DNA from: Escherichia coli
Lineage (GTDB): Bacteria; Pseudomonadota; Gammaproteobacteria; Enterobacterales; Enterobacteriaceae
Assembly: GCF_009931435.1 (NCBI RefSeq)
Contig: NZ_CP043414.1
DNA length: 64,000 nt
Strand: one strand, 5' to 3'
Below, one piece after another: positions 1 to 25,603 of this stretch; the stretch's first letter is position 1; the number at the start of each line of letters is the position of its first letter. A model generated the notes under the pieces. It ran no database searches, was not told the origin of the DNA, and saw only the letters and a list, made by a program, of their open reading frames with translations. The translations under genes and the position numbers were made by a program.

Positions 1-2887
1 CAGAAGGCTGTACCCACCAGTTCACCGGTAATTCACTCACACTGTGTTTTGCACTGTCACGCAGGGGGGCACGGGATGAGGTGCCTTCGCCAAAGGTCAT
101 ATCGTTGTGGCTGCCCAGACGGAAACCGGCACGCACATGTTGTGCACTGCCATGCCCGAACTTCACATAACCGGCGTTGTCCTTACCGTCATCCAGGGAA
201 AGTCCCTGCCAGGTATACTGCAGTTGTGGCTCCAGCATCAGGTTGTCAGTGATACTGAAGGGCAGACCGGTTTCCAGTGAGCCCAGCCAGCCCCAGCCCC
301 GGGCGCGGAAGTCGTTATTGTCCGATGACGCTTTCATGCTGTGGCGGGTTCCCTGTGCCACAATGTCAGCCCACAGGCCGGAGGACGTGTGTGTCAGATT
401 CAGGTATCCGCCCAGGCTGCCGGCATCATCCCGGACCGTGCCGGCACGGGAGCCGTCATCATCCTTAACATCAACGGAAGAATGGCCAGCAGCACCATAT
501 ACCCCCGCGGTCACAGACATACCGGCAACCTCTGTTCTCATCAGGTCACCCTCCAGACGGACGAATCCATAGCTGCCGCTGCTTTCCGGCGTGGCCCCAC
601 GGGCAATACCGCCATTGTTATCGTGACCGAGATGACCGCCCTGAATGCTGAGACGGACGCTGTTGTTTTCACCATTTACACCGGTCTGATGGCTGCGGGA
701 GCCTGCCACAATCCGGTCATAGTCCATTGCCTGTGTCAGCATGGAGGCATACAGGGGGACTTCTGCACGATAAGCATTTTCACTGCGCAGATACCAGCTC
801 TCACCACTGTCCCGGTTGAGGGAGTAGTTAAAGGCACCGGCCTGCAGCCTGTTCCCCTGGACAAAGGCCCCTTCCTCCGTGGTGGCACCGTTAATGGCTT
901 CCACCACCTGAATACCCTTACCGCTGGTCGCCAGCCCCGACGCACTGTTGCCGGCGTTCACCAGGTTCAGGATGGTTTTTCCGGTTGCCCTGCCGCCGTC
1001 AATGACCAGTCTGTCAGCATTGTTCTGTGCCATATCCGGGCGTACACGCAGGCTGATGGTGCCATTCTGTCCGTTCAGGTTTTTCACTTTCAGGGTTGCC
1101 GGTACGAACTTCCCTGTGCGGGTGGAGGTGAAATGAATCTGTCCGGCATGGCTGAGGTCATCCACCACCGACTGCACCGTGGCGTTATCGGGGATATTCC
1201 AGGTGGCACCGGAGGCGAGAGTGACATTCGTGGGGTCAATGGCACCGTTCAGCACAGTGCTGCCGGTCAGCTTCAGGGCTGTACCGCGCTGAGCAATGAC
1301 ATCCGTGGTGACGGTACTGTCGTTCAGCGTCAGCGTGCCTTCATTCAGGTTGACGGCTTTCTGGGTGAGTGTGGTGTTGCTGACAGTGAGTGTGCCACTT
1401 CCTGATTTTTCCACGCTGCCGTTACCGGTGAGAGAGCCTCCCTGCAGGAGTGCATCGCCTTCACGGATGGTCAGGGTATCGTTGTTCACCGTCTTCCCGG
1501 AAAGGGTAAGTATGGCGCCGTTATTCAGCGTGGTGGTGCCCGCCAGTGTGCCGCCCCTGGCGGTGAACAGTCCGCCATTTACCGTGGTATCCGTGGCCGT
1601 ATCACCGGCGTTCAGCGTGAATGAACTGCCTTTTTCCAGCATCAGGGCATCCGCCTGACCGCCTCCGATACTGAATGCCTTTCCGTCGCTCCGGGTACCA
1701 CTGACAGCGGCACCGGAATCGGCCAGCAGTACACCGCCATTTCCCATGGATACGGTGGTGGCGGTACCACCGTTGCGGACATCCAGCGTTCCGCCATCAT
1801 CCACGCGGGTATTAGTGGCTGTGTGTCCGGTCAGCACATCCAGGCGTCCGCCATTTTCCAGTACGACATTATCAGCTTTACCCTCCACAACCGAGAATGC
1901 TCCAAGGCGGTTTATGCCGGTAACGGTTGCAGCCGTACTGGTAACCAGTGCGCCGCCCTGCTTCAGGGTGACATTCGTGGCTGTACCACCGGCGTCCACC
2001 TGCAGTCTGCCCTTCTGATTAACGGTGGTATTCCCGGCCACACCCCCGTTTTTGACAATCTGCCAGCCGTCACTGTTCACAACAGTGTCAGACGCTGTAC
2101 CGCCGTTGTGCACATACTGGTATCCCCCATTCAGCGTGGTATCCAGTGCGTGACCATGTACAGTCTGGTCGCCGCCGGCATAAACCACAGTGGTATTTGC
2201 CGTTCCTTCAGTTCTCACAATCTGGCGACCGTTTTTATTGATGGTTGTGCGTACGGCATCCCCGCGAACAAACTGCCCGGTATCACCGTTTTCTGCATCC
2301 GGTCCCCCTTCCGCCCCGGTATTAACAACGGTATCCGTTGCCACTGTACCGGGCTTGACGACCTGCCAGCCCTTATCATTAATGACGGTTCCTGTGGCTA
2401 TCGCCCCCTCATGCATCCACTGTTCGCCACCATTCAGCGTGGTGTTCACTGCCCGTCCCTGAAGGCTCTGTCCGCCTCCGGCACTGATAACCGTGTCTGA
2501 GACACTTCCACCGGGGTTCACTCTCTGAAGACCACCACTGGTGACAGTCGTTTTGTTGGCTGTTCCGCCATCCTGTACCCATTGCCCGCCGGTATTGGCC
2601 TCGTTATCCGGCCCATACTCCAGCCCGGTACTGATGGTCATTCCGTTGGTCGTACCGAAGACAATCTGGTTGTCATGATTTTCCAGTGTTCCGCCGTTCA
2701 CGGTTTCACCTGCCTGTACAATACTGTCAGCAGCCAGGGCCGGGACTGACGTGACAGCAGCAAGAGACAGAGCAACCGCCACACCGGCGCCTTTTCCCCG
2801 TGAGCGGGCCAGTTCGGAGGCCACCACCAGGGTGCCCGTAATGTGATTCCATACCAGCCTGTAGCTGGTGTTCAGATGTCGTTTCAT
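1..2887 (-). CDS. flu: Antigen 43 (self-associating autotransporter adhesin), 3' end truncated by window edge (about 75 codons missing)
   Basis: Reverse complement from 2887 reads MKRHLNTSYRLVWNH... with long signal peptide and passenger repeats; reverse complement of window start reads ...RAPLRDSAKHSVSELPVNWWVQPS, matching the Ag43 translocator region; the long plus-strand ORFs here are antisense artefacts. Confidence 0.9.
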   Translation of the reverse strand, partial: MKRHLNTSYRLVWNHITGTLVVASELARSRGKGAGVAVALSLAAVTSVPALAADSIVQAGETVNGGTLENHDNQIVFGTTNGMTISTGLEYGPDNEANTGGQWVQDGGTANKTTVTSGGLQRVNPGGSVSDTVISAGGGQSLQGRAVNTTLNGGEQWMHEGAIATGTVINDKGWQVVKPGTVATDTVVNTGAEGGPDAENGDTGQFVRGDAVRTTINKNGRQIVRTEGTANTTVVYAGGDQTVHGHALDTTLNGGYQYVHNGGTASDTVVNSDGWQIVKNGGVAGNTTVNQKGRLQVDAGGTATNVTLKQGGALVTSTAATVTGINRLGAFSVVEGKADNVVLENGGRLDVLTGHTATNTRVDDGGTLDVRNGGTATTVSMGNGGVLLADSGAAVSGTRSDGKAFSIGGGQADALMLEKGSSFTLNAGDTATDTTVNGGLFTARGGTLAGTTTLNNGAILTLSGKTVNNDTLTIREGDALLQGGSLTGNGSVEKSGSGTLTVSNTTLTQKAVNLNEGTLTLNDSTVTTDVIAQRGTALKLTGSTVLNGAIDPTNVTLASGATWNIPDNATVQSVVDDLSHAGQIHFTSTRTGKFVPATLKVKNLNGQNGTISLRVRPDMAQNNADRLVIDGGRATGKTILNLVNAGNSASGLATSGKGIQVVEAINGATTEEGAFVQGNRLQAGAFNYSLNRDSGESWYLRSENAYRAEVPLYASMLTQAMDYDRIVAGSRSHQTGVNGENNSVRLSIQGGHLGHDNNGGIARGATPESSGSYGFVRLEGDLMRTEVAGMSVTAGVYGAAGHSSVDVKDDDGSRAGTVRDDAGSLGGYLNLTHTSSGLWADIVAQGTRHSMKASSDNNDFRARGWGWLGSLETGLPFSITDNLMLEPQLQYTWQGLSLDDGKDNAGYVKFGHGSAQHVRAGFRLGSHNDMTFGEGTSSRAPLRDSAKHSVSELPVNWWVQPS

Positions 2888-3059
2888 CAGCTTTTCCTTA
2901 GATTGAGGGTGAATAAAAAAGCCGGTACCCACAAACGTGGATACCGGCAGGTAAAGGGTTACAGTGCCGGAGGTCCGGCTGTGGGAGTTTCTGAATTGTG
3001 GTTCTGTTGTTCCCTGAATGTCTTTCTGTACGTATCTGTGCATGTTACTGACAAAGGTT

Positions 3060-3120
3060 ATTATTAGCTTATCGATCGATATAAACGATCGATAAAATAG
3101 ATATCGATCGTTTTATTCTA
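3060..3120 (-). promoter_or_regulatory. flu (agn43) phase-variation control region with three clustered GATC (Dam) sites
   Basis: GATC at 3074-3077, 3087-3090 and 3106-3109 within an AT-rich tract about 190-220 nt upstream of the flu start; matches the known Dam/OxyR switch architecture. Confidence 0.7.
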
Positions 3121-3214
3121 TTATTGAGCTATTGCACGGACAAGAGAGACAGTAACGAAAACAGTGCTTTTGTGAGCAGACTCAGAGTCAGGGAGGGCAT
3201 CAGTCACGACAGGT

Positions 3215-4087
3215 TCAGAAGAAAATCCAGTTCCATACCGCACGGGCAACAGAGACCACCGTGTCACGAACAGCGCGCAGGGCCGTACGGACAACAGAGG
3301 CAACACAGACGCTCTCCGCTGTGTCAAATATCCGGTCCACCGCACCGGTAAACTGTTCACGGGCCTGAGAGCGGACAGATTCCGTGCGCAGCTCGTCCTG
3401 CAGTCGGGTCATCAGGGGACTGGCGGCATGGTCGGGAAGCGCTGTCATGAGCGCACTGACCAGCGTATCCAGTTCCCAGCCGGTGCGGGCCGATACGGCC
3501 ACAACCGGATGTACGGGCCGGAACAGACGGAATACCGCCTCCGTTTTTTCGCGAATATTCTGTGCCTGTGCAGGAGAAGGCTGAATACCGGCCATATCCC
3601 ATTCATGGCAGGGCTCCGTTTTGTCGGCCTGCGTCACCACAAACAGTACCCGCTGATGTCCCCGGTGCAGGATGTGTCGCCAGAAATACTCATCCACAGA
3701 CAGGGCACGGTCATCGGCTTTAATCAGCCACAGTACCAGGTCAAGTTCAGGCAGAATGTCACGGTACAGGGCCTCATACTCTGCATCCCTGTCCCGGCTC
3801 TCGCCCACCCCGGGCAGGTCAGTGATAACCATGCTGTGACCGTGGCCACTCAGACGGAAGCGCCGTACTTCCCGGGTGCCGGCGTGAACATCACTGACCG
3901 GGGTGACCTCCCCCTGAAACAGTGCATTACAGAGTGAGGATTTACCGGCCCCGCTTTTACCCATAATGCCAATCACGGGTTCGTGACGGGTGAGTTTGCG
4001 CAGATGTTCCAGGATGTGACGGGAAAGCGAGTAAGGCAGGGAGGAGAGCGGTTTTTCAATTGCCTCAATGGCATCAGACGGATTCAT
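3215..4087 (-). CDS. yeeP: YeeP/YfjP-family prophage GTPase (50S ribosome-binding GTPase-like), apparently full length
   Basis: Translation from internal ATG at 4087 (MNPSDAIEAIEKPL...) with P-loop GIMGKSGAGKSS and DLPG motif; ORF-track start at 4126 is probably an N-terminal over-extension. Confidence 0.8.
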   Translation of the reverse strand: MNPSDAIEAIEKPLSSLPYSLSRHILEHLRKLTRHEPVIGIMGKSGAGKSSLCNALFQGEVTPVSDVHAGTREVRRFRLSGHGHSMVITDLPGVGESRDRDAEYEALYRDILPELDLVLWLIKADDRALSVDEYFWRHILHRGHQRVLFVVTQADKTEPCHEWDMAGIQPSPAQAQNIREKTEAVFRLFRPVHPVVAVSARTGWELDTLVSALMTALPDHAASPLMTRLQDELRTESVRSQAREQFTGAVDRIFDTAESVCVASVVRTALRAVRDTVVSVARAVWNWIFF

Positions 4088-5315
4088 ACATGTATTCCCG
4101 GTGAAAAAAGACAAAACCCCGCGCACCGGAAAGGTGGCGGGGGATTCACGGAGATAATATCTGTCTGAAATTGTTTTTAATCGATGGGATTGTTGCGTAT
4201 TAACATGAAGGAGATCAGGACTTATCCGTTACTGGGTGATCTCCTTCCATGAAAATACGCCGTTATTGTTAAACAGCAGGCTGATTTCTCCGTAAAGGGG
4301 AAAATATTTATCGGCTGCATGATTATCAGGTGTGTCTGTGTTTACTGCTGTGAGTATTTTTCAGTGTATTGTGGGGGAGATGTCAGTGGGAGATATTAAA
4401 TTTACATTTATAATTATCTTACTTCTTCTGTGTGTTTTTTATAAGAGTGCACACGTAATGATATCTGTTGATACCATGTGGTTAAGTGTTTCCCTTCCTG
4501 GTCATGCGTAATGATTAAATGCTTTTGTGACACCATTCTTCCGGTCTGAATATTTATCCCGTTCTTTTTTATTTGTGCAGTGATACTGTCGGAAGAGAAT
4601 TCAGTAATGTGAGGTGTCCTGGTCAGGATAATATCTGCTGAGATATTATTAGTTGAGTGTGTTTTTACTGAGCAAAAGCTGGCTTTTAATTCCTGTACTG
4701 AAACGCTGTTGCTCGTCCGGGGTTAACTGAAACTGGATGATGATGTAAAATGAAGGCTGTTTTTGTGTTTGTCGAAGAAGTGTTATTTTAATCCATTCTC
4801 ATCATTGGCTGGCGATTATACAGAAGTATTTGAAGAAAAAATGGTGCATTTTATCTGCGTCAGCAGGGAGGAAGTATTTTATTGATGTATCAGTATTAAA
4901 TGGTTTTTGTTATTTAGAAATATGTCATCCTGTCCATAGAATATTGTACTCAGCATTCAGTGCAGGAACTGTAGTCTTCTTTATTTTATTCTTCTTCAGG
5001 AGGGGGGATTCCTGAAGGCGTTATTCCCGGTGTTCTGTTTATGATTCATCCCGGCAGGAAACCGGTATCTGCAATACCCGGGATGATGCTTTTTGTTCGT
5101 ACGTGGTTGTGTAAAATTTGAATAGTGGATGTGCTCTGAAGGGAAGGAGGGGACACACAGATTCATTTTGTCTTTCTTCAGCAGCAAAACACACTGTGGT
5201 TATTATTTAACCATTAAATCAACAAAAATTTTTACCTCATATTGATTTGACTGCTATTTTTGCTATTAATAGCCAGAATTGCAGTACTTTTATATCTGTG
5301 TGTAGTGAGGTTACT

Positions 5316-6800
5316 ATGTCATTCGGTCAGCCTTGTGATGAGTTTCCCCTGAGTTCGCTGCCTCCACTCATTCGTGATGCCGTTATTGAAGCTCAGCAAA
5401 TTACGCAGGCTCCCCTTGGGCTTGTGGCAGCGTCTGCCCTGGGCGCTGTTTCACTTGTCTGCCAGAATCTGATTGATGTCTGCAGACTGAATACACTGCG
5501 GGGGCCGGTCTCTCTTTTTTTCCTGACGCTTGCCGAGTCCGGAGAACGAAAAATCGCAGTGGACAAATTATTAATGAAGCCCCTGTATCAGCAGGAGATG
5601 CAGTTATATTCCAGATACAAAAGTGAACTGGCTGTCTGGAAAAACAAGGAAGAGCTTTTAAAGGCTCAGAAAAAAGCATTGTTGTCAAAACTGAATAAAG
5701 AACTCCGCAAAGGAGCGGATGAGTCAGAAACCCTCAGACAACTGGAAGTACTTCAGAAAAACAGTGCGGAAGAACCTGTGAGGTATAAATTCATTTTTAA
5801 TGATGCCACGACTGCGGCAATTAAGAATCAGCTTTGTGGTAAATGGCGTTCAGTGGGTATTATGTCAGATGAAGCCGGTATTATATTTGATGGATATACC
5901 CTGTCTGAGTTGCCATTTATTAACAAAATGTGGGATGGCTCTGTATTGTCTGTGGACAGAAAGAATGAACCCGAACAGATGATTGAAAATGCCAGAATGA
6001 CGTTATCCCTCATGGTGCAACCCGGTCTTTTTGACCGATATATGGAGCGAAAAGGTTCTGTTGCCAGGGACAGTGGTTTTCTTGCCCGTTGTCTTATCAG
6101 TAAACCTGCAACCACGCAGGGGAAACGCTTTATTAACGGAGCTGTGATTCCGGGAGGATCATTAACGGCATTTCATGAACGATTAATGGAACTGGCCAGA
6201 GGCAGTATTGAAAAATCCAGTGAGGATGAACGGTATTGTCTGCATTTTTCGCCTGAAGCGCAAAAAATATTTATTGAGCACTATAATGTTCTGGAGCAGG
6301 ATTTATCTCCCTCCGGTCCGTTAAGTGCGTTTCGGGGACATGTTTCAAAAAAAACAGAAAACATTGCAAGAATTGCAGCGTTATTTCAGTATTTCAGCTA
6401 TGGTGAAGGGAAAATCTCTGCCGATATCATGACGTCTGCTGTCGTAATAAGTTCGTGGTACACAGATGAATATAAAAAATTATTTGCGTTACCTGATGAA
6501 TCTGAACTGCAGCAGAAGGACGCCGAGGAGCTGTTCGACTGGCTCATTGAGGAGTGCCGCGGAGAATGCCCACCCCGTGTCAGGAAAAATTATATTCTCC
6601 AGTGTGGCCCGGGTCGGTTCAGAAACAGGAAAAAACTGAACGCATTGCTGAACATTCTTGAATCTCAGTTCAGGCTTTCTGTCGTGCCGGAAGGAAAAAC
6701 CATGTATGTTCTGCTTCCCCAGATAGCCAGTTTAAAGTTGTCTGATGTCTCTGGTATTTTTACCTCGGGTTATCACTACAATAAGCTGAGAGCGAAGTAA
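5316..6800 (+). CDS. Large island protein, tentatively DUF3987 / YfjI-like (prophage replication-associated protein of unknown function)
   Basis: 494 aa from ATG 5316 preceded by GTGAGG Shine-Dalgarno; motifs recalled from the DUF3987 family (MSDEAG, GSVLSVDRK, LMVQPG, GFLARCL); no P-loop visible; family assignment from memory only. Confidence 0.55.
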   Translation: MSFGQPCDEFPLSSLPPLIRDAVIEAQQITQAPLGLVAASALGAVSLVCQNLIDVCRLNTLRGPVSLFFLTLAESGERKIAVDKLLMKPLYQQEMQLYSRYKSELAVWKNKEELLKAQKKALLSKLNKELRKGADESETLRQLEVLQKNSAEEPVRYKFIFNDATTAAIKNQLCGKWRSVGIMSDEAGIIFDGYTLSELPFINKMWDGSVLSVDRKNEPEQMIENARMTLSLMVQPGLFDRYMERKGSVARDSGFLARCLISKPATTQGKRFINGAVIPGGSLTAFHERLMELARGSIEKSSEDERYCLHFSPEAQKIFIEHYNVLEQDLSPSGPLSAFRGHVSKKTENIARIAALFQYFSYGEGKISADIMTSAVVISSWYTDEYKKLFALPDESELQQKDAEELFDWLIEECRGECPPRVRKNYILQCGPGRFRNRKKLNALLNILESQFRLSVVPEGKTMYVLLPQIASLKLSDVSGIFTSGYHYNKLRAK

Positions 6801-6859
6801 CCGGTGAGCAGTTTTTCTCCATTATGCTTCAGACTTAGATGATTGATTATTATGGGGAT

Positions 6860-6899
6860 TTCATCACCGATATTCAGATGTATGAATATCGGTGATGAA
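6860..6899. repeat. Perfect inverted repeat (17 bp arms, 6 nt loop) between convergent genes; possible bidirectional terminator or protein-binding palindrome
   Basis: ttcatcaccgatattca / gatgta / tgaatatcggtgatgaa read directly; no U-tract on either side. Confidence 0.5.
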
Positions 6900-7121
6900 C
6901 TAAAGCTCAGGAGTTGCGTGGTGGTGATGAATCAACAGGCATATAACTGATACCCGCCGGTCAGAAGTTCCAGCCTGCGACTTTCCTGTCTGCGTGCCCG
7001 CAGTCCGGCGTTCAGGTGCAGCGTGTGACAGAACGCACGGAGAGCGAAACGGCAGGCAGACAGGCTGTTCAGTCAGCCCTGGCACCCTGCCCGGATACCA
7101 GCTTCCCTGAAACAACTGGCA

Positions 7122-7730
7122 TCAGGTGCGCTTATCGTCAACCGTTGTGCGGTATGCCAGGAGCACGTACTGATCCATCAGATCCGTCAGTGCTGCGCTC
7201 TGCTTCTGACGGTTGATGATCCATTCCTCCAGCTCTTTTTCTGATTTCCGTTTCAGATTCTCCGTCCAGTCGTCAAGGCAGTTTCCGGTCATTAAATCAA
7301 GCCAGCAAAGCCAGACCAGTTTGAGGCGCAACTCCGTGCCACCAAACTGACGGAAGAGGCTGATCAGTTTATTTGCCAGCGAACGCTGCCTCAGACGTTC
7401 ACATTCAGACAGGAGAATGCCTTCCAGCATCGGATGATGAACCAGCAGATGTTCACTGGTGCATAAATTCACTATCAGATCATCATCCAGGGGCGGCGTG
7501 GTCCGTTTGTCCGGACCATAAATCAGCCGGTGCAGACTCTGGGGTACGATGGCAATCTCCGGTTTTTCACCATTGAATGACACCCACCCGGGCGTCAGAT
7601 TATGGAAGTAGTAGATATTCGGATGACACACGCCCCAGGATACGGCGTGCCGGGTGAAGCCGGTCAGCCATTTCTGGTAGCTTTCGTGGAGCAGCTCGTA
7701 ACGGGTCTGATACTGTGGTTTCATTTTCAT
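7122..7730 (-). CDS. Hypothetical protein (202 aa) downstream of alpA on the same strand
   Basis: ORF 7122..7871; internal ATG at 7730 (MKMKPQYQ...) has a GAGGAA Shine-Dalgarno 6 nt upstream; no family recognised. Confidence 0.5.
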   Translation of the reverse strand: MKMKPQYQTRYELLHESYQKWLTGFTRHAVSWGVCHPNIYYFHNLTPGWVSFNGEKPEIAIVPQSLHRLIYGPDKRTTPPLDDDLIVNLCTSEHLLVHHPMLEGILLSECERLRQRSLANKLISLFRQFGGTELRLKLVWLCWLDLMTGNCLDDWTENLKRKSEKELEEWIINRQKQSAALTDLMDQYVLLAYRTTVDDKRT

Positions 7731-7810
7731 ATTCCTCACGGGAGATAACAGGCAGCAGAACGCCGCCGGCAGGCCGGAGACTGCGTCTGCTGCAGATGAA
7801 CGGTTAAGAA

Positions 7811-8017
7811 TTACGGACGGGACTGTGCAATACGCGCCTGCAGCCAGGCTTCCACTTCGCTTTTCAGCCATCGGGAGCTGCGGCCCATTTTGATGGGCGC
7901 AGGAAAGTCACCATCCTTGATGAGTTTGTAAAACCACTTATCGGTCAGGCCGGTCAGTTGAGTGATAAATGCCATGTCGACCATCTGGTCATCCATCAGT
8001 GAAACTGGGGTGATCAT
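7811..8017 (-). CDS. alpA: AlpA-family prophage transcriptional regulator (MerR-like HTH)
   Basis: MITPVSLMDDQMVDMAFITQLTGLTDKWFYKLIKDG...RWLKSEVEAWL pattern typical of the AlpA family; ATG 8017 preceded by GAGGAA. Confidence 0.75.
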   Translation of the reverse strand: MITPVSLMDDQMVDMAFITQLTGLTDKWFYKLIKDGDFPAPIKMGRSSRWLKSEVEAWLQARIAQSRP

Positions 8018-8563
8018 GAGAATGTTCCTCCGGATGTTGTTAAACCAGCCGGTGTGGTCATGAAAACAACGCACCACCTTCACCGGCATAACAACCGGGG
8101 AGAAACGTAAAAAATAATCGGGAATGTGACCGCCAGGAGATAAACGGGGAGGTTACGGTGGCTGAGCCGTACCGGTATGCCGGGTGGTTGTTACGAAACG
8201 ATGCTTCCGCACGCGCGCGCGATAAAGAAGGGATGATTTTCGTGAGGAAGAGGGGAAAACTGGCGTTCTGATAATTGCAGAGTTATTTACGGGGCGGTTA
8301 CGATGGGGCAGACCGTGTCCGGTGGGCAGGCGACAGGTATCACCGATGGGATAAGACTGTCTGATTGGTATTATAAATATATAAGAGAGATCAAACACAT
8401 GAGATCAAATACATGAGTTCATATATGTGAAATAAACACGGTGAGTGTGATCAGTGGGCATGATGAGAACGCAGTAGCAACAGACTGCGCTATCCCTGAT
8501 AGCTGGCGTATAACCTGCGTATATAAAACGTACCAGCAACGCACGTGAACAGAGTGCATTAAG

Positions 8564-8579
8564 CATCCGTCGTTGACAC
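8564..8579. repeat. 16 nt identical to the IS100 right terminal repeat (catccgtcgttgacac); solo IS21-family end remnant
   Basis: Exact match to 25513-25528 plus flanking c of the IS100 copy in this window. Confidence 0.5.
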
Positions 8580-9329
8580 CGACCTGGTGAGTGACAGTCT
8601 GAGAGACCGGTTAAGTGGTGGTACGGGAGTAATGAGTTTGGGGTGGGTACCAGAATGCCAGTCTGGCGGTATGCTGACAGTATCACGTTAATTGCAGCAT
8701 AAAGTGATGAGAGGCTAATGGAAGTTAAAACCAGAGCAGTTCCGTCGTTGTTCATCCCGGGAGACGCTGGAAAAAGTGATTTCCCACACGCGTTATAAGC
8801 TTACTCCAGCGGAGATGGAAGCCTTCAACTCTGCGGTCGATCACCGACTGGCAGAACTGACAATGAACAAGCTTTACGATCGTGTTCCCGCTTCAGTCTG
8901 GAAATATGTCATCTGAGCGTTCGGTAATCACAACTGCATCGCGCCAGGTGTTATCCGCTTTGTGATTCTTATTGGCTCTTCTCAGGTTATTAAAAGCTGA
9001 ATATGTTCCTGTTGTCGGGAACCAGGATAATACCGGGAGCGTTAAGCGGTATAGCGACAACAAAGAATTCGAAATCAAAAGGGAATGGTGCCGGAGGCGT
9101 GGGCGGTAATAGGCTGATTTTCAGGTATTACCGGCTTACAACGTGTGGTTGATATTGAGGGGCTGTGAGTTTCGCGTATTTGTCAGAAACCCAGATGAGT
9201 TTTCCTGTATGGGACGAAATAAGGCAGCGGCAATACCTGGAAAATTTAATATGGTATGAAGGAGAACCTGTCGGTTACGCTTAATATACACGGTACACTG
9301 TCAGCTCAGGGGATACATGAACCGTTATC

Positions 9330-9539
9330 TCACCAGCTACACAGTATACACACACTGACGCTGACAGTAGTCAGCAGGACCACAATAATCAGCGCCAGCA
9401 GTATGGTAACGATACGGTCTGTATTCCGGTAGTAGCCGAAGGGGTCGACAGAACCACAATACGGGCAACACACTGTATTATTAGTAATCGCGTTTCCACA
9501 GTCCCTGCACTTCTTTTGCGTATCACCATAACTCCCTCC
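9330..9539 (-). pseudogene. Small zinc-ribbon plus transmembrane-helix protein, apparently frameshifted
   Basis: ATG at 9529 with strong GAGGAGGGAG Shine-Dalgarno opens a 46-codon frame; the -1 frame encodes CRDCGNAITNNTVCCPYCGS followed by a hydrophobic helix (IVTILLALIIVVLLTTVSVSV) but lacks a start codon. Confidence 0.4.
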
Positions 9540-9727
9540 TCACAGCCTTACCCGTAACCGGTTTTTTACATTAAAAAACAACGCTGAAAATTCAACCGTC
9601 AGTCCGGAGACGACCGTTCGGGTTATCACAGAGTGCCTGAGACAGTGTCCTGCCGGAGGTCACTTCAGGGACTCTGCGCATTTTTTACGACGTGGCTATT
9701 CCGTATGAACCATACGGAGATTTAACC

Positions 9728-10297
9728 ATGACCTACAAATACAACCCCTTCTGGCAGCAACGTATTCGTGAGACGGTGCGGCACGCACTGAATGTTCATC
9801 CCCGCCTGACGGCATTGCGGGTTGACCTGCGTCTCCCGGATGTACCGGCAGCAACGGACGCAGCTGTGATATCCCGCTTCATCAATGCCCTGAAAGCCCG
9901 AATCGACGCTTACCAGAAACGTAAGCATCGGGAAGGTAAACGCGTGCATCCCACCACCCTGCATTACGTCTGGGCCCGGGAGTTTGGGGAGTTCAAAGGT
10001 AAAAAACACTATCACCTGATGCTGCTGGTCAACCGGGATACCTGGTGTCGTGCCGGTGATTACCGCGCTCCGGAGTCTCTGGCCGGGATGATTAAACAGG
10101 CGTGGTGCAGTGCCCTGGGAGTGGATGTCGGGTGCCATGCCACGCTGGTGCATTTTCCGGCCTGGCCGGCGGTGTGGCTGGCGCGTAATGATGACACCGG
10201 CTTTCAGCAGGTGCTGGAACGTGCTAACTATCTGGCGAAGGAGCATACCAAAGCTCACTGCACCGGTGAGCGCAACTTTGGCTGCAGTCGTGGCTGA
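9728..10297 (+). CDS. HUH-type rolling-circle Rep-like protein (YagK/YfjJ / inovirus gp2-like family)
   Basis: HUH motif KKHYHLML and YxxK motif (NYLAKE) near the C-terminus; ATG 9728 with GGAG Shine-Dalgarno embedded in an 8 bp palindrome (9700-9718). Confidence 0.65.
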   Translation: MTYKYNPFWQQRIRETVRHALNVHPRLTALRVDLRLPDVPAATDAAVISRFINALKARIDAYQKRKHREGKRVHPTTLHYVWAREFGEFKGKKHYHLMLLVNRDTWCRAGDYRAPESLAGMIKQAWCSALGVDVGCHATLVHFPAWPAVWLARNDDTGFQQVLERANYLAKEHTKAHCTGERNFGCSRG

Positions 10298-10462
10298 GCC
10301 AGACAGACGAGTTATCTGACTTCAGTGTGATGACGTGTTCACGGCCACCACACTGATTTTCCCTTATGAGACTGAACTGAAACCGCCATTCACACCTGAC
10401 CACGCTGCCCGTACCGGGACGGCTGTTGCCTGCGTGTCGTCTGACGGTAAGGAACATATACT

Positions 10463-10855
10463 ATGTACGCAAAATCCTTTCTCGCTCTTGATGGCAACGG
10501 ACGTCTGACGGGCGCCCGTACAGCACAGGCCGCACCTTATGCTCACTACACCTGCCACTTGTGTGGCAGTGCACTCAGATACCATCCGCAATACGACACT
10601 GAACTTCCCTGGTTTGAACACACTGACGACAGGCTGACAGAGCACGGTCAACAGTGCCCTTATGTCAGGCCGGAGCGCAGAGAAATACAGTTGATTAAAC
10701 GTCTGCAGCAATTCGTACCGGATGCCTTACCCGTGGTGCGTAAAGCCAGCTGGCACTGCAGACAATGTCACCACGATTATTATGGGGAGCGGTACTGCAC
10801 ACACTGCCAGACCGGAGGTTTCAGTCTTCCCCGGACAGCTCAGCAACTGTCTTGA
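10463..10855 (+). CDS. Uncharacterised zinc-ribbon protein (paralog 1), CxxC pairs and PWFEH motif
   Basis: 130 aa; CHLC ... PWFEH ... CRQC-x10-CTHC; AAGGAA Shine-Dalgarno upstream; paralogous to 12019..12423. Confidence 0.6.
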   Translation: MYAKSFLALDGNGRLTGARTAQAAPYAHYTCHLCGSALRYHPQYDTELPWFEHTDDRLTEHGQQCPYVRPERREIQLIKRLQQFVPDALPVVRKASWHCRQCHHDYYGERYCTHCQTGGFSLPRTAQQLS

Positions 10856-10864
10856 ACGTAAAAA

Positions 10865-11833
<969 letters not shown>

Positions 11834-12005
11834 GATTACCCATCCTTGCAAATGCGTTATGGCGTACTGACAACTGTTCGGGTTTCAGATGAGTGGCTCA
11901 GTGTATGCGCCATTCGCTGAGCTACGGGCTATGAACCCCTTGAGGGATCGGGCTGCATACACCTTGCCAAATCTAATCACAGTTATTTTAACCAATTGTC
12001 AAGAT
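11834..12005 (-). ncRNA. Candidate IS110-family bridge-RNA region (structured 5' non-coding arm); hypothesis only
   Basis: 8 bp stem (11901-11908 with 11955-11962) enclosing a smaller hairpin; TTGACA hexamer on the minus strand at 12002..11997; analogy to IS621-type elements. Confidence 0.25.
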
Positions 12006-12018
12006 ACAAGGAGGAGAT

Positions 12019-12423
12019 ATGCGAATTCTGAACTGCTATATGGCGAATGACAGCAAAGGCCATTTTGTTACGGCGAAAGAAGCCGCGAAGAACAACCGAC
12101 AGGACGTTTTGTGCTGTGTGTCCTGTGGTTGTCCGTTAACACTTAAGCGGGGCAATGACGGACAACCGCCGTGGTTTGAACATGACCAGATGACTGTTGC
12201 TGCGAAAATCCTGCTGCGATGCACCTGGCTTGACCCGGCAGAGAAAGAGGCCCGTCGTTTGCATCTGCAGGGCATGACGGTTCCGGATTATACGGTGAAG
12301 GTGAGAAAGTGGTTTTGTGTGATGTGTGACGAAGATTATGAGGGGGAAAAGTGCTGCCCGCGTTGTGGTACCGGGGTATACAGCAGGGATAGGGGGGCTG
12401 CAGGAGGGCAACTGGAAGGATAG
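12019..12423 (+). CDS. Uncharacterised zinc-ribbon protein (paralog 2)
   Basis: 134 aa; CCVSCGC ... PPWFEH ... CVMC-x9-CCPRC; strong AGGAGGA Shine-Dalgarno; same architecture as 10463..10855. Confidence 0.6.
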   Translation: MRILNCYMANDSKGHFVTAKEAAKNNRQDVLCCVSCGCPLTLKRGNDGQPPWFEHDQMTVAAKILLRCTWLDPAEKEARRLHLQGMTVPDYTVKVRKWFCVMCDEDYEGEKCCPRCGTGVYSRDRGAAGGQLEG

Positions 12424-12617
12424 GAACTGAGCGGTTCAGTCGCGGAAATCAGTTGCAGAGCTGTAATGATATCTCCGGGAGTGCTGCGTTGGTAGGGGCA
12501 TCCCGGGATAGAGAAATTTTAGCACTTTGCCCTGAATGATTGTAGACGTCCCGAGTACTCGTACCGGCCTGAGTTATTACAGTTAGATATTCGCTTTTTC
12601 TCCCGCATACTTCACAG

Positions 12618-12639
12618 CTGTCAACGACGGATGAAAAGT
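12618..12639. repeat. 22 nt identical to the IS100 right terminal repeat (tgtcaacgacggatgaaaagtg), opposite orientation to the 8564 copy
   Basis: Exact match to the reverse complement of 25507-25528; the following sequence is not IS100 interior. Confidence 0.55.
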
Positions 12640-12713
12640 GGTTCTTCCGCAACTTGGGTGGAAGAAAATGGATGAAACTTTCTGGTGAACAAAGATCTAA
12701 GCTGATTTAAGTT

Positions 12714-13375
12714 ATGGGCAACGCAATGCACTCTCTTAAGACACTTTTAAAGTTACCTTGCGGATGGCGATGCAGTCGACAAATTATTAGCTCTGACGGT
12801 ATAACCCTCCATCTCCACGGAAAACGCAAAACAGCACAATGTCCTGAATGCTTTAAGCGTAGCGACTCTGTTCATAGTTGTCGTCGGCGCCGGATACAGC
12901 ATCTACCCTGCTCAGGGCAGACGCTATGGCTTGTATTTTCCGTCCGCCACTGGTACTGCCGTAACCCGGCTTGTTCACGTAAAATTTTTGCCGAGTCGCT
13001 TGCTCCCTTCGCCAGTTCACACCAGCAGTCTTCACAGGCGTTACAAAATTAACAACGTCAACTGGGATTAATAGCTGGAGGTGAGGCTGGAAAACGGGCT
13101 GCAACGGCAGCGGGTCTCCGTTGCAGTGCTGATACTCTTCTTCGCAGGCTTATCAATACCCCGGAGACGAAACAGTCAGGCGCGCCTCATGTCGGTATTG
13201 ATGAGTGGGCGTGGCATTGGGGCCACCGTTACGGTACGTTAATATTCAATCTTGATACTCACCGCCCCCTGGTCCTGCTTCCCGGCCGTGATCAGCGTAC
13301 GCTGGCGACCTGGTTCAGAAAAGGTCCGGAAATACAGGTTGTATCGCGTGATCGCAGTGGAGTCTATGCGACAGC
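12714..13375 (+). pseudogene. ISL3-family transposase remnant (zf-ISL3 N-terminus, frameshifted, 3' end cut by IS600)
   Basis: N-terminal CPEC...HLPCSGQ...RHWYCRNPACSRKIFAESL pattern; downstream frames encode GIDEWAWHWGHRYGTLIFNL and VSRDRSGVYATAE in shifted frames. Confidence 0.6.
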
Positions 13376-13648
13376 TGAGGTAGCCTGAGTTTAACGGACA
13401 CTCCTTCCTGAAATAGAATGGCATCAGAAGGAGCTAATAATGAGCAGAAAAACCCAACGTTACTCTAAAGAGTTCAAAGCCGAAGCTGTCAGAACGGTTC
13501 TTGAAAATCAACTTTCGATCAGTGAAGGCGCTTCCCGATTATCTCTTCCTGAAGGCACTTTAGGACAATGGGTTACCGCCGCCAGAAAAGGGCTCGGTAC
13601 TCCTGGTTCCCGCACGGTGGCTGAACTGGAATCTGAAATTCTGCAACT
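13376..13648 (+). mobile_element. IS600 5' fragment (left inverted repeat plus first about 69 codons of orfA), truncated by IS30
   Basis: Starts TGAGGTAGCCTGAGTTTAACGG...; orfA MSRKTQRYSKEFKAEAVRTVLENQLSISEGASRL... breaks at the IS30 end. Confidence 0.8.
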
Positions 13649-14869
13649 TGTAGATTCAATCTGTCAATGCAACACCCCTTTCAATTATCTCTTTCGGTGT
13701 TTTGAACTTCAGTGTCTTTCTCGGTCTGTTGTTTAGCTGAGCAGCAACCAGATCTAGTTCATGTTGAGTATATTGGGCAAGACATGTCTTTTTAGGAAAG
13801 TACTGCCGAATTAGCCCATTTGTGTTCTCATTTGTTCCCCGCTGCCAAGGACTCTGAGGATCGCAGAAGTAAACTTTAACGCCGGTGCTGACAGTAAATT
13901 CTAGATGTCTGGCCAGTTCCATTCCTCTGTCCCATGTCAGTGATTTTCTGAGTTCTGACGGTAAACTCAGGAATTTGTCGGTAAGAGCCTGATTTACTGA
14001 GACAGAATCTTTGCCCCTGAGTCTGAGGATGATCGTATAACGTGATTTTCGGTCTACAAGTGTGGCTATATGAGAGTTTTTTGTACCTGAGACTAAATCG
14101 CCCTCCCAATGCCCCAGAGAGCGTCTGTTATCGATATTTCGGGAACGTTCGTGAATTGGTGTTCCGTTCACTATGTTAATCGTACCTCTTTCGCCTTTGC
14201 GGGTATGACGCCTGCCATGGCGAAGGCTATGCGACCGTCGCAGATGCTGTATATTCAGGTGGTGTAGCGCTTCACGGCTACGAAAGTACAGCGTTTTATA
14301 AATTGTCTCAGGTGATATTCGCAGCGTTTTTTGACGTGGTTTTGTTCGCCTTAACCATCCTGATATTTGCTCTGGAGACCATTTCATCTCCAGCTTTTCC
14401 AGAACAAGCTTTCGCAATGGCAAATTTTGATCCAGTAAGCACGGTTTTGGCCTTTTCGCCATTCTGTTGGCTCGGTTATTAGCATCAACAGCTTTGTAAT
14501 AGCGTCTGCCCCGATTACGCTGAACTTCACGTGAGATCGTCGAAGGACTGCGATTCAGCGCAGTAGCTATCGCACGAATGCTCATTTTGGCTGACAAACC
14601 AGCTCGTATCTCCTCGCGCTCAGACAGTGTCAGGTGAGCTACAGCCCGCTTACGCTCATGGGGTTTTATGCCGCCAGTATCCCTTAACATAGTGAAGATC
14701 GTTCCGGGTTTTGAACCCAGGATATTCGCTATTTCACTGAAGCCTGTTCCGTTCTTCCATAGTTCAAAAACAGAGGCTTTTTCCTCTGCTGTAAATGTTC
14801 GTCTCATTCAAAAAACCTCCGCAACCCCATGTTTTCACATAACTGTTGCGTTGACCAATTGAATCTACA
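13649..14869 (-). mobile_element. IS30, complete (1221 bp) with terminal inverted repeats
   Basis: Ends tgtagattcaatctgtcaatgcaaca (13649-) and ctgttgcgttgaccaattgaatctaca (-14869); length equals canonical IS30. Confidence 0.9.
13656..14807 (-). CDS. insI: IS30 transposase (383 aa)
   Basis: MRRTFTAEEKASVFELWKNGTGFSEIANILGSKPGTIFTML... recalled IS30 transposase. Confidence 0.9.
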   Translation of the reverse strand: MRRTFTAEEKASVFELWKNGTGFSEIANILGSKPGTIFTMLRDTGGIKPHERKRAVAHLTLSEREEIRAGLSAKMSIRAIATALNRSPSTISREVQRNRGRRYYKAVDANNRANRMAKRPKPCLLDQNLPLRKLVLEKLEMKWSPEQISGWLRRTKPRQKTLRISPETIYKTLYFRSREALHHLNIQHLRRSHSLRHGRRHTRKGERGTINIVNGTPIHERSRNIDNRRSLGHWEGDLVSGTKNSHIATLVDRKSRYTIILRLRGKDSVSVNQALTDKFLSLPSELRKSLTWDRGMELARHLEFTVSTGVKVYFCDPQSPWQRGTNENTNGLIRQYFPKKTCLAQYTQHELDLVAAQLNNRPRKTLKFKTPKEIIERGVALTD

Positions 14870-15183
14870 GCGGCTTTTTTTAATATGTCCCGTTCGTCGG
14901 TAACCCGTTTCAGCTCTTTCTGGAGACGGCGGATCTCGGCCGGAGCATCTGACTGTTCTTTATTAGTGGAAGAATCCGGACCGTACTTCTTTATCCAGGC
15001 ATAAAGGCTGTGGGTGGTGATATCGAGACGTGTTGCAACGCTGGCAACAGAATAACCGCGATCAACAACCTGTTTGACTGCTTCAGTTTTAAACTCTTCG
15101 GGATAACGCTTACCGCTCATGGGCACTTCTCTTTAAGCCATCTTAAATGACTCTGAGGTGTCTGTTAAACCCGTGGCGATTCA
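14870..15183 (-). mobile_element. IS3-family element 5' fragment (terminal repeat plus orfA N-terminal 85 codons), truncated by IS30; specific IS not assigned
   Basis: orfA MSGKRYPEEFKTEAVKQVVDRGYSVASVATRL...ERDILKKAA ends at the IS30 junction; terminus (reverse complement) tgaatcgccacggg resembles IS3-group ends. Confidence 0.7.
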
Positions 15184-16172
15184 GTACAAAACACAACAAT
15201 AGCTTCATGATATATAAATACGTGATGACGAGTGGTACTCCGCATGGTTATTTAACTTCTCAGCACCACTAATGATCCTGAGCAACTTCGTATTTGGGCC
15301 ATTGCCATGGAGTAGAAAGCTGTGTCTGAGAATGCAGAATTTGAGAAAAGAATTAGCTTTCTTGGAGAGCTTCTGAAAATGGCACGCTAACAACGTTTTG
15401 TTAAAAAATGTGAATCACTTGCCGGGGCTGCATTTTCTATTCGAGGAGAATGTTGACGTAGATATTACAGAAATCTCAGCGCATCAGGATAAACTGCTAC
15501 CTTAGGTCAACCACCAAAAGAAAATACAATACGTCCAGTTTGTATGCCTTTAATAACACATCTTCTAAATGTTGAAGAATTATCCCGCCTGCTGAAGAAC
15601 GTTGCTCTGAGTGTGATAAACCTTTTTATTCTTGATGATGTCAGCGAGAAGATGGAATATATCCCCGACTGGGTCGTGGTTACCCGGTTAAACATCTGGT
15701 GGCGCTAATAAATCTGGCAGGTCACATTCTGTTGAATGCTGTGACAGTGCCTTACCGAGAGAGCGAAATTGTGGTGTTCTAGTGCATAGTCGCCACCATT
15801 CCGGATAATTCTATTGCGTTGTTTTACAAGTTCTTTTACAGCGCAGATCTGTCGCTGACGTTGAATCAATAGCCTGGATTTCAGAACACAATGCCTGTTT
15901 GCTGGTTGGTCCGGCAGTAGCATTAATTCATTATCTGAATGAAATGTGTCAATCCACAGAAACCGCTGTCAATGACGCATTTTGTCGGACGTTAACACGA
16001 GAAAGTTTGGCTATTCCGTAATGCCATCTTATTTCGTAATGGATTGAGAATGCTGGATTTTTAATTATATTACGCGCAGTATTAATCGCGTAAATGTTTT
16101 GCGGTCAGCAACGGTGGGGGATCCATTGTTCTGTTCAATGAATACCATCATACATTTGAATCAGGAGTCGGT

Positions 16173-16718
16173 ATGATGATTTTGGTGACGGGGGGCGCAC
16201 GGAGCGGGAAGAGTCGCCACGCAGAGGTGCTTATTGGGGACTCTTCACAGGTTCTGTATATCGCTACCTCGCAAATCCTTGATGATGAGATGGCTGCACG
16301 GATAGAACATCATCGGCAAGGCCGCCCGGAGCACTGGCGCACAGTGGAGCGCTGGCAACATCTTGATGAATTAATTCATGCAGACATTAACCCGAATGAG
16401 GTTGTGTTGCTGGAATGCGTTACCACAATGGTGACTAATCTGTTGTTTGATTATGGCGGCGATAAAGACCCTGATGAATGGGATTATCAGGCGATGGAAC
16501 AGGCGATTAATGCTGAGATTCAGTCGTTGATTGCTGCCTGCCAACGTTGCCCCGCAAAGGTTGTATTAGTGACTAACGAAGTGGGAATGGGGATTGTGCC
16601 GGAGAGTCGTCTGGCACGACATTTTCGTGATATTGCCGGGCGGGTAAATCAGCAGTTGGCCGCTGCGGCAAATGAAGTATGGCTGGTGGTTTCTGGTATT
16701 GGAGTAAAAATCAAATGA
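16173..16718 (+). CDS. cobU: Adenosylcobinamide kinase / adenosylcobinamide-phosphate guanylyltransferase
   Basis: 181 aa, [18 protein letters not shown]... P-loop. Confidence 0.95.
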
Positions 16719-17458
16719 GTAAATTATTTTGGGCGATGCTCTCATTTATTACGCGTCTGCCTGTACCGCGTCGCTGGTCCCAGGGACTGGATTTCGAGCA
16801 TTATTCTCGCGGTATTATTACTTTTCCTTTGATTGGATTATTGCTTGGCGCGATTAGCGGGCTGGTCTTCATGGTGCTGCAGGCATGGTGTGGCGCACCA
16901 CTGGCGGCACTGTTTAGCGTACTTGTGCTGGTGCTGATGACCGGGGGATTCCATCTGGACGGCCTCGCTGATACCTGTGATGGCGTATTTTCTGCACGTA
17001 GCCGCGATCGCATGTTGGAAATCATGCGTGATAGCCGTTTAGGCACCCACGGCGGTCTGGCATTGATTTTTGTGGTACTGGCAAAGATTCTGGTGTTAAG
17101 CGAGTTGGCTCTGCGTGGCGAATCGATCCTTGCATCGCTGGCGGCAGCATGTGCGGTCAGCCGCGGGACTGCCGCATTATTGATGTATCGTCATCGTTAT
17201 GCGCGGGAAGAAGGGCTTGGCAATGTGTTCATTGGCAAAATTGATGGGCGACAAACCTGCGTCACACTCGGCTTAGCCGCTATTTTTGCTGCCGTATTAT
17301 TGCCGGGTATGCATGGTGTGGCTGCTATGGTGGTGACGATGGTGGCGATTTTCATCCTCGGTCAGCTTCTCAAACGTACGCTGGGCGGGCAAACGGGCGA
17401 TACGCTGGGAGCAGCCATAGAGCTTGGTGAACTGGTCTTCCTGCTGGCACTGCTATAA
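16715..17458 (+). CDS. cobS: Cobalamin (5'-phosphate) synthase
   Basis: 247 aa from [18 protein letters not shown]..., ATGA overlap with cobU stop. Confidence 0.95.
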
Positions 17459-17469
17459 AGAGACGTGAC

Positions 17470-18549
17470 ATGCAAATACTTGCCGATTTACTGAATACGA
17501 TCCCAGCCATCGATTCTGCCGCTATGTCGCGTGCACAACGGCATATTGACGGGTTACTCAAACCTGTTGGTAGCCTGGGAAAGCTGGAGGCGCTTGCCAT
17601 ACAACTGGCAGGAATGCCGGGGTTGAATGGCATACCGCATGTGGGCAAAAAAGCGGTACTGGTTATGTGTGCCGATCACGGCGTCTGGGAGGAAGGGGTC
17701 GCTATTTCTCCAAAAGAAGTGACAGCCATACAGGCTGAAAATATGACCCGTGGAACAACCGGCGTGTGTGTGCTGGCAGAACAAGCGGGCGCTAACGTCC
17801 ACGTAATTGATGTTGGTATTGATACTGCTGAGCCTATCCCCGGGCTTATCAACATGCGTGTCGCACGAGGTAGCGGCAATATTGCTTCAGCTCCGGCAAT
17901 GAGTCGCCGTCAGGCTGAAAAGTTGCTTTTGGACGTCATATGTTATACGCAGGAGCTGGCAAAAAACGGTGTCACGCTGTTTGGTGTAGGTGAACTGGGG
18001 ATGGCAAACACGACACCGGCAGCAGCAATAGTCAGCACAATCACTGGCCGGGATCCTGAAGAAGTGGTTGGGATTGGCGCAAACCTGCCGACAGATAAAC
18101 TGGCTAATAAAATTGATGTTGTGCGTCGGGCGATTACGTTGAATCAACCAAATCCTCAGGATGGTATTGATGTCCTGGCAAAAGTGGGTGGATTTGATTT
18201 GGTCGGAATAGCTGGAGTGATGTTAGGTGCTGCTTCCTGCGGTTTACCCGTGTTGCTGGATGGATTTCTTTCTTATGCTGCTGCGCTCGCAGCCTGCCAG
18301 ATGTCTCCTGCAATCAAACCGTATCTCATTCCTTCTCACTTGTCGGCAGAAAAAGGCGCGCGTATAGCGCTCTCGCATTTGGGGCTGGAGCCTTATCTCA
18401 ATATGGATATGCGTTTAGGTGAGGGGAGTGGTGCAGCTCTGGCGATGCCCATCATCGAAGCTGCTTGTGCGATATACAACAACATGGGCGAACTTGCTGC
18501 CAGTAATATTGTTCTACCGGGGAATACGACTTCTGATTTGAACTGCTAA
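17470..18549 (+). CDS. cobT: Nicotinate-nucleotide--dimethylbenzimidazole phosphoribosyltransferase
   Basis: 359 aa. Confidence 0.95.
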
Positions 18550-18613
18550 AAACGAAAAGTCTGATAAAAGCTATACTTATCGGATAGTATTCGCGACTTA
18601 GGAAAGGGACATG

Positions 18614-19546: not shown

Positions 19547-19569
19547 GAGCGTTGGTAATTAGAAAGTAA

Positions 19570-19598
19570 AAAGCCTGCTCGAAAGCAGGCTTTTTTTG
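19570..19598 (+). terminator. Rho-independent terminator after ldtA
   Basis: gcctgct-cgaaa-agcaggc hairpin followed by T7 run. Confidence 0.8.
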
Positions 19599-19602
19599 AA
19601 TT

Positions 19603-19678
19603 TGGCTCCTCTGACTGGACTCGAACCAGTGACATACGGATTAACAGTCCGCCGTTCTACCGACTGAACTACAGAGGA
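19603..19678 (-). tRNA. asnV: tRNA-Asn (GUU)
   Basis: Exact 76 nt tRNA-Asn sequence, reverse complement. Confidence 0.95.
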
Positions 19679-22011: not shown

Positions 22012-22087
22012 TGGCTCCTCTGACTGGACTCGAACCAGTGACATACGGATTAACAGTCCGCCGTTCTACCGACTGAACTACAGAGGA
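22012..22087 (-). tRNA. asnU: tRNA-Asn (GUU)
   Basis: Exact tRNA-Asn sequence, reverse complement. Confidence 0.95.
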
Positions 22088-23313: not shown

Positions 23314-25576
<2,263 letters not shown>

Positions 25577-25603
25577 CTAAATCAGTAAGTTGGCAGCATT
25601 ACC

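Follow-up and report, generated by a model that had tools for sequence, protein, structure and literature searches.

A CP4-44-type island arm between flu and cobU

We analysed positions 4130-16170 of a 64,000-nucleotide stretch of Escherichia coli DNA (contig NZ_CP043414.1 of assembly GCF_009931435.1; this whole stretch is called the window below), a region that lies between flu and cobU and that a preliminary description had read as a degraded integrative element scarred by insertion sequences (IS). Our comparisons indicate that this region is the cobU-proximal arm of a CP4-44-type antigen-43 island that is apparently immobile and chromosomally inherited, and we assign a probability of roughly 0.85 to this explanation as a whole. 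The region is nothing new in kind, being an ordinary variant of a known cryptic island; it is annotated already and is shared by hundreds of sequenced strains.

Gene calls for positions 1-20000 were taken from the RefSeq annotation of the E. coli strain ZH48 chromosome, which is 100% identical to this part of the window, and were supplemented by our own checks. Both sources place all of the genes and IS elements listed in the preliminary description for this region where it had located them; the IS1 and IS100 that it also counted lie beyond its coordinates. The annotations of ZH48 and K-12 both put the island between cobU and tmaR (yeeX), so the preliminary description was right in assigning a CP4-type element to the CP4-44 position. 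In ZH48 the opposite arm of the island (yeeS-cbtA-yeeW) is missing and yeeR abuts tmaR. Distribution was assessed in a set of 5426 complete E. coli genomes. At least 80% of positions 1-20000 is held in one place by 459 of these genomes, which are isolates from pigs, humans, birds and seawater, and some part of positions 4130-12700 is matched in 4312 of them.

The origin of the region is evident from its alignment with the K-12 and 042 chromosomes. K-12 CP4-44 (yeeP-isrC-flu-yeeR...cbtA, in the cobU-tmaR interval) occupies the same chromosomal position and likewise has no integrase, and only two stretches are common to K-12 and the window. The first, with 96.6% identity by BLAST over positions 2426-3767, comprises the 5' end of flu, isrC and the 3' part of yeeP. 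The second, over positions 15184-16937, comprises the yoeG/yeeH debris and cobU at 99.4-99.5% identity, with K-12 having an additional IS5 at a point corresponding to 15779-15782. Everything between positions 3767 and 15184 is absent from K-12 CP4-44, specifically a full yeeP, yfjI, the AlpA-like and Rep-like genes, the zinc-ribbon genes and all of the IS elements of the window. K-12 contains yoeH, yoeA, IS2 and IS5 instead, along with only a fragment of yeeP. In contrast, E. coli 042 is collinear with the window at 96-99% identity over positions 3106-10299, 10375-10843, 12009-13375 and 15184-16872. Strain 042 differs in lacking the IS110 element, in having ISL3 as a full-length pseudogene, in retaining fragments of ggt and of a phosphotriesterase gene, and in carrying another IS3-family element. 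This collinearity with segments of both K-12 and 042 indicates that the window carries a fuller form of an island that is mostly deleted in K-12, and not foreign content. Thus, the whole-region alignment that had been proposed as a check does place the island, and it speaks against the statement that the region stands in for K-12-like content, as the island is the same one, K-12 has lost positions 3767-15184, and the last 1 kb (15184-16170) is itself K-12-like.

The far ends of large pathogenicity islands in other E. coli strains exhibit the same backbone. In the haemolysin island of AF14 and in the kps-adjacent island of GABEEC132 the gene order is zinc ribbons, Rep-like, hha, AlpA-like, unknown, YfjI, GTPase and Ag43, continuing to cbtA. 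The stretch that contains a graveyard of IS elements in the window is occupied in these islands by cargo, namely the hly operon in AF14 and IS66 with nan/iha in GABEEC132. A related island in Klebsiella pneumoniae has CbtA through GTPase on one strand and AlpA, the 200-aa unknown gene and the Rep-like gene on the other strand, followed by BREX. From these three layouts it follows that variable cargo begins just past the Rep-like and zinc-ribbon genes. The preliminary description had proposed a cargo region repeatedly targeted by IS elements, and this view holds up, as the IS pile lies at the site of hly in AF14, of IS66 and nan/iha in GABEEC132 and of BREX in Klebsiella.

We also looked for evidence of mobility. 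In agreement with the preliminary description no integrase is annotated, and a tblastn search of positions 1-20000 with K-12 IntA gave a best E value of 2.3. Direct repeats resembling attachment (att) sites, a check that the preliminary description had suggested, were sought across the entire island of ZH48, the identical strain; only short chance pairs were returned, none of which pair the ends or bracket the island. There is also no tRNA gene next to the island before position 19603. The coordinates of all features are collected in Table 1.

Table 1. Features of the island arm and its borders, in window coordinates.
Feature	Position	Strand	Evidence or remark
agn43 (flu)	off left edge to 2887		RefSeq annotation
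IsrC (IS102) RNA	2908-3111		Rfam, 253 bits
YeeP-like GTPase, intact, 290 aa, WP_001069680.1	3215-4087	-	RefSeq coding sequence; GTPase family matches
AT-rich spacer, ~39-43% GC, no convincing open reading frame, between divergent yeeP and yfjI	4088-5315		Composition; list of open reading frames
YfjI-family DUF3987 protein, 494 aa, putative helicase	5316-6800	+	Pfam DUF3987, 5.8e-94
200-aa protein, downstream of and co-oriented with the AlpA-like gene	7122-7724	-	RefSeq hypothetical
AlpA-family helix-turn-helix regulator, 68 aa	7811-8017	-	Pfam Phage_AlpA, 1e-8; HTH_17
Truncated hha paralogue, N-terminus missing, 49 aa	8767-8916	+	Hha profile positions 24-71 of 72
YfjJ/YagK ('inovirus Gp2') family, HUH Rep-like, 189 aa	9728-10297	+	Pfam YagK_YfjJ_C, 8.9e-48
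Zinc-ribbon protein 1, DUF7828 + Zn_ribbon_11	10463-10855	+	Pfam
IS621-like IS110-family element, 1167 bp counting one CT core copy	10844-12010	-	Empty site in 042
IS110 recombinase pseudogene	10865-11833	-	NCBIfam transpos_IS110, both halves, 8e-27 and 8e-32
Putative bridge RNA gene, 175-nt 5' non-coding left end	11834-12008	-	Folding, consensus, guide matches
Zinc-ribbon protein 2, 134 aa, paralogue of zinc-ribbon protein 1	12019-12423	+	RefSeq coding sequence
ISL3-family (ISEc38-like) 5' remnant, internal stop	12619-13375	+	96% to ISEc38-family element
IS600 left end and 5' part of orfA, 273 bp	13376-13648	+	100% to IS600 copies
IS30, complete, 1221 bp, intact 383-aa transposase	13649-14869	-	26-nt inverted repeats; RefSeq coding sequence
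5' fragment of second IS3-family element, terminus TGAATCGCCACGG...	14870-15184	-	98% to yagB-adjacent fragment in K-12-derived strains
K-12-like debris: IS4-family fragments (yoeG/yeeH) and cobalamin-synthesis (cbi) remnant (15878-16021)	15185-16021		BLAST to K-12; annotation
cobU	from 16173		RefSeq annotation
First tRNA	19603		Beyond cobUST-ldtA

A conserved backbone maintained by purifying selection

The backbone of the island runs from the YeeP-like GTPase gene, which lies just to the left of position 4130 where the preliminary description began, to the second zinc-ribbon gene. The preliminary description had judged yeeP to be full length, and the gene indeed codes for an intact GTPase. 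Maintenance of the backbone was assessed from the ratio of nonsynonymous to synonymous substitution (dN/dS) for five of its genes relative to the ~90% identical island copy of GABEEC132. The values are 0.10 for yeeP, 0.32 for yfjI, 0.12 for the AlpA-like gene, 0.56 for the Rep-like gene and 0.15 for zinc ribbon 1. This indicates that these five genes are maintained under purifying selection and are not decaying. The AT-rich spacer between yeeP and yfjI is ~90% identical to the diverged island copy, as are the adjoining genes.

The YfjI-family protein also matches PHROG 2373, annotated as 'DNA helicase' (4.4e-81), and a DUF3987 protein has been demonstrated to be a 5'-3' helicase that is partnered with the replicase of a mobile element (PMC11724360). 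The Rep-like protein has a second Pfam match to REP_ORF2-G2P (2.5e-5), and HUH-type HYHLML (HYH) and YLAK motifs are readable in its translation. Thus 'HUH Rep-like' is a fair label for this Gp2-family protein, with nuclease activity being predicted. The presence of this predicted nuclease together with the DUF3987 helicase suggests that the pair plausibly formed the replication module of an ancestral element. A PADLOC search found no defence system, with YeeP giving only a weak similarity to LeoA/LeoBC-like GTPases.

The two zinc-ribbon proteins are 32% identical to each other (E 4e-17). The final codons of zinc-ribbon gene 1 are supplied by the right end of the IS110 element, and in E. coli 042 this gene continues and overlaps zinc-ribbon gene 2. 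The truncated hha paralogue, which along with the 200-aa gene was omitted from the preliminary description, scores 79.8 bits with the Hha profile, which has a cut-off of 90 bits. In the GABEEC132 copy of the island hha is annotated as a pseudogene that also lacks the N-terminus.

The AlpA-like protein has PHROG matches to excisionase/regulator families. The 200-aa protein encoded downstream of it gave no match in Pfam, NCBIfam, PHROG or PADLOC. Homologues were detected 188 times, all of those with a named source being from Enterobacterales, and within this family an HLLxHHPMLEGxLLSEC block is invariant. The AlphaFold2 model has a low pLDDT of 58.9, and neither Foldseek against the PDB nor a profile search of PDB sequences returned anything below E = 0.8. 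The pair consisting of the AlpA gene followed by the 200-aa gene is also found in Klebsiella. Note that the 200-aa gene has no DNA match to its GABEEC132 copy, although the adjoining genes are ~90% identical, and that homologues of the protein fall into two groups at >80% and ~60% identity. The divergence of this gene between island copies suggests allelic replacement.

An inactivated IS621-like element and its bridge RNA

The IS110-family element that separates the two zinc-ribbon genes is defined by its empty site in 042. On the element strand the 042 sequence reads CATATTTCCTC-CT-GAGTTGTCC and is otherwise collinear with the window with a 2-bp overlap of the flanks, such that a second CT and 1165 bp are additional in the window. 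Both junctions of the element have this CT core, which reads AG on the + strand, and its ends have no terminal inverted repeats. The element is found in 731 genomes, where it is single-copy and always located at the same site. One in-frame amber codon at positions 11354-11356 interrupts its recombinase gene; this codon is CAG in an intact plasmid relative. A diverged, 98.6% identical copy of the element shares the amber codon, and the element is inactivated in all 731 carriers as examined by annotation or sequence.

The 5' non-coding left end of the element has features of a bridge RNA gene. Its predicted folding energy is 2.7 standard deviations below that of shuffled sequences. A consensus was derived from the window and three plasmid relatives (pCFSAN004179G, pMB7355_2 and pTP10-2 p1) that are 73-84% identical, and for these sequences RNAalifold predicts 41 pairs, 3 of which are compensatory, in two stem-loops with internal loops; with four sequences the support is modest. 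The variable columns of the alignment coincide with both sides of internal loop 1.

The architecture of the RNA and the rules for reading its guides were taken from IS621 (Durrant et al. 2024, PMC11208160). Under these rules the right target guide AGCUCAG, on the 3' side of the first loop, is complementary at 7 of 7 positions to the CT core plus the right flank (CT+GAGCT). The corresponding guides of the relatives, UAAACAG, GAUACAG and AUAUCAG, can pair fully with CTGTTTA, CTGTATC and CTGATAT, the flanks of the respective elements, so that the right guide fits at 7/7 in all four elements with four different flanks. The donor guides are also readable. The left donor guide ACAGUUG, on the 5' side of the second loop, is the same as the right-end terminus ACAGTTG, and the right donor guide CAAG is complementary to the left-end CTTG.

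Fragments that resemble this element are present elsewhere. Its last 221 bp (10844-11064) are ~87% identical to a truncated 'IS110 family transposase' fragment at positions 2126-2346 of the GABEEC132 locus. This fragment always occupies one chromosomal location close to the kps genes, and matches of this kind were the best hit in ~1600 records. The GABEEC132 locus also contains, at 20360-20543 (corresponding to about position 8599 of the window), a 182-bp insertion in the spacer between the AlpA-like gene and hha that is flanked by CTGAGAG repeats. This insertion is found in other backbone copies and is absent from the window. Starting from the CT core, its first ~66 bp are a left-end fragment of an IS110 element with ~88% identity to window positions 11951-12018. 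Similar unannotated 60-bp IS110 matches occur in many genomes.

Nested insertion sequences at the former cargo slot

The junctions between the remaining IS elements were read directly, and they corroborate the preliminary description of an ISL3 remnant cut by IS600, an IS600 cut by IS30 and an IS3-family fragment beyond. The ISL3 remnant ends at position 13375 directly at the IS600 terminus TGAGGTAGCC, and the full-length ISL3 pseudogene in 042 extends past this break. IS30 interrupts IS600 orfA after ...EILQL. On its other side is the orfA fragment of the second IS3-family element, the last residues of which are ...DILKKAA and which lies head to head with the IS600 fragment. K-12 and 042 are both continuous across window position 15184. 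The nest recurs in full, down to identical junctions, in 195 complete genomes.

IS30 has no target-site duplication in the window, as its flanks ...GCAACT and GCGGCT... come from two different and opposed IS3-family orfA genes. A simple insertion cannot explain these flanks, which thus reflect a later rearrangement. From the missing target duplication and the opposed orfA 5' ends we infer that IS30 either mediated a deletion or recombined with a second IS30 copy. Such an event would have taken the rest of ISL3 together with the ggt and phosphotriesterase fragments that are still found in 042. Several other genomes and plasmids also have an IS30 with 17-26 bp of IS3-family orfA sequence at its flanks or with IS600 as its neighbour, and K-12 IS911A is likewise split by IS30. 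Insertion of IS30 may be biased towards a site within the orfA genes of IS3-family elements.

At its outer edges the island has the cbi remnant on the cobU side (window 15878-16021) and, in 042, a short EutP/PduV-family gene at the far end (042 locus 11-193). In light of the Salmonella gene order, these two edges fit an island that has replaced the ancestral cbi-pdu region.

Additional sequence features

An Rfam search of positions 1-22000 at a permissive threshold returned only IsrC and a tRNA, with the long spacers and the bridge RNA remaining unmatched. The frequency of promoter-like and terminator-like sites in positions 4000-12500 was not above that of shuffled sequence. Beyond the island, the window has ~1.96 kb more than ZH48 between two tRNA-Asn genes (22087-26572), with the third tRNA-Asn observed at 26572 where 24613 would be expected from ZH48. 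In size, this difference would suit the IS100 named in the preliminary description. Among the best hits listed from complete E. coli genomes there is no contiguous match for positions 20001-45000.

Alternative explanations

Several observations weigh against the interpretation given above or against parts of it. The order of backbone genes differs from that in K-12 CP4-57 and in Klebsiella, and for this reason the term replication module refers to an assignment made from domains and not to a conserved operon. In regard to the bridge RNA, the left target guide AUCCCUCAA fits the left flank ATCTCCTCC at 4 of 9 positions in every copy examined, and in the guide registers that were tried, with one-base bulges included, there were never more than four contiguous matches. 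Because of this 4/9 fit, an RNA-guided choice of the exact IS110 site is half supported by the predicted guides. The element might instead have arrived without guidance from its own bridge RNA, either by off-target or homology-independent recombination or by transfer of an interrupted zinc-ribbon region between islands. The poor left guide favours such an arrival, as does the 4-5/9 fit of the left guide of pMB7355_2. It is set against a right guide that, CT core included, fits 7/7 in four elements with four flanks, against a junction that is precise at the CT core, and against pTP10-2 p1, where both sides fit (8/9 and 7/7), and we consider unguided arrival to be unlikely. We also considered whether the backbone is a selected functional unit, in which a module of the AlpA-like regulator and its 200-aa partner, with the Rep-like protein, the DUF3987 helicase and the DUF7828 pair beside the cargo slot, could regulate the expression of the cargo, the replication of the island or defence against phages, and separately whether insertion of IS110 may have needed only the right guide and about four base pairs of the left guide; taken jointly, these two proposals appear distinctly unlikely.

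The gene sets of phage-inducible chromosomal islands (PICI) and of P4 typically include an AlpA-family regulator and a DUF3987 protein. Pfam matches place both in the window, where there is also a Rep-like protein, and the preliminary description had accordingly called the element satellite- or PICI-like. A satellite remnant of this kind would have used AlpA to activate primase/helicase replication after induction by a helper phage. However, the region has no gene for packaging, capsid size or helper interference, with the PHROG hits of eight proteins being to helicase, excisionase/regulator and unknown families. Furthermore, the AlpA-like (-) and yfjI (+) genes are convergent and do not form an operon, there is no integrase or att site, and the module is always joined to GTPase-Ag43-antirestriction-RadC-CbtA in islands of tens of kb, far above the size of a satellite. 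This origin is thus very improbable, and the CP4-44-type island arm remains the preferred reading. A further claim that did not survive is that the IS load marks an IS-expanded Escherichia/Shigella lineage, in which the pile would derive from a recent burst of transposition. The five IS families within 5 kb would suit such a burst, as would the extra DNA between the two tRNA-Asn genes and the lack, among the best hits listed from complete E. coli genomes, of a match that covers the rest of the window in one piece, these hits being pieced together. Nevertheless, 195 complete genomes have the entire nest, and the 20-kb layout recurs in 459 genomes from varied hosts. Of the five IS, IS30 alone is intact, the others being truncated or interrupted by stops, and the amber-containing IS110 copy is single, fixed and inactivated in 731 carriers. 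Scars that are common to 195-459 complete genomes are old and inherited and thus say nothing about recent IS expansion, so we regard a recent burst as extremely improbable. Overall, the CP4-type element with an IS-hit cargo slot stands from the preliminary description, and the PICI-like nature, the non-K-12 content and the IS-expanded lineage do not.

Proposed history and significance

The following order of events would account for the present structure. The backbone, from the YeeP GTPase to the DUF7828 zinc ribbons, is retained under purifying selection. The IS621-like IS110 element would have inserted at a CT between the zinc-ribbon genes, with its own bridge RNA as the apparent guide, after which a CAG-to-TAG mutation would have inactivated the recombinase before this variant of the island spread. 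In the former cargo slot ISL3 would have been cut by IS600 and IS600 by IS30, and an IS30-associated deletion or IS30-IS30 recombination would have removed the DNA before the inverted IS3-family fragment. The K-12-like IS4 debris and the cbi remnant represent the chromosomal border.

These results indicate that CP4-44 of K-12 is what extensive deletion has left of a larger island, the backbone of which is conserved and selected across E. coli. The window also illustrates cleanly how IS elements nest and decay in nature at the cargo slot of an island, and it adds one fixed and inactivated IS621-like element with predicted bridge-RNA guides that are readable against its flanks. Work on the function of these very common islands could reasonably turn to the 200-aa partner of AlpA and to the DUF7828 zinc-ribbon pair. 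Beyond bookkeeping the importance of the region is small, with the mildly interesting points being limited to a bridge RNA with a poor left guide and to backbone genes that are selected and uncharacterised.

Comparison with known systems

The closest described counterpart of the backbone within K-12 itself is CP4-57 (intA-yfjH-alpA-yfjI-yfjJ), in which the paralogues have 53% (YfjI), 35.5% (YfjJ) and 24% (AlpA) identity to those of the window. CP4-57 differs in having an integrase next to ssrA and in having alpA, yfjI and yfjJ co-oriented, whereas in the window the AlpA-like gene faces yfjI, has another downstream partner and is not accompanied by an integrase. The backbone would be the replication/regulation end of a family of integrative islands of the Enterobacterales.

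IS621 inserts among repetitive extragenic palindromic (REP) sequences. The IS110 element of the window is similar to IS621 in its transpos_IS110-family recombinase, in the CT core at both junctions and in a ~175-nt 5' non-coding RNA with two predicted internal loops, the second of which has the right-end terminus on its 5' side. It probably differs from IS621 in sequence, the nearest E. coli relatives found being the 73-84% identical plasmid elements, and it also differs in having an amber codon, a left guide with a poor 4/9 fit and a single-copy, fixed distribution.

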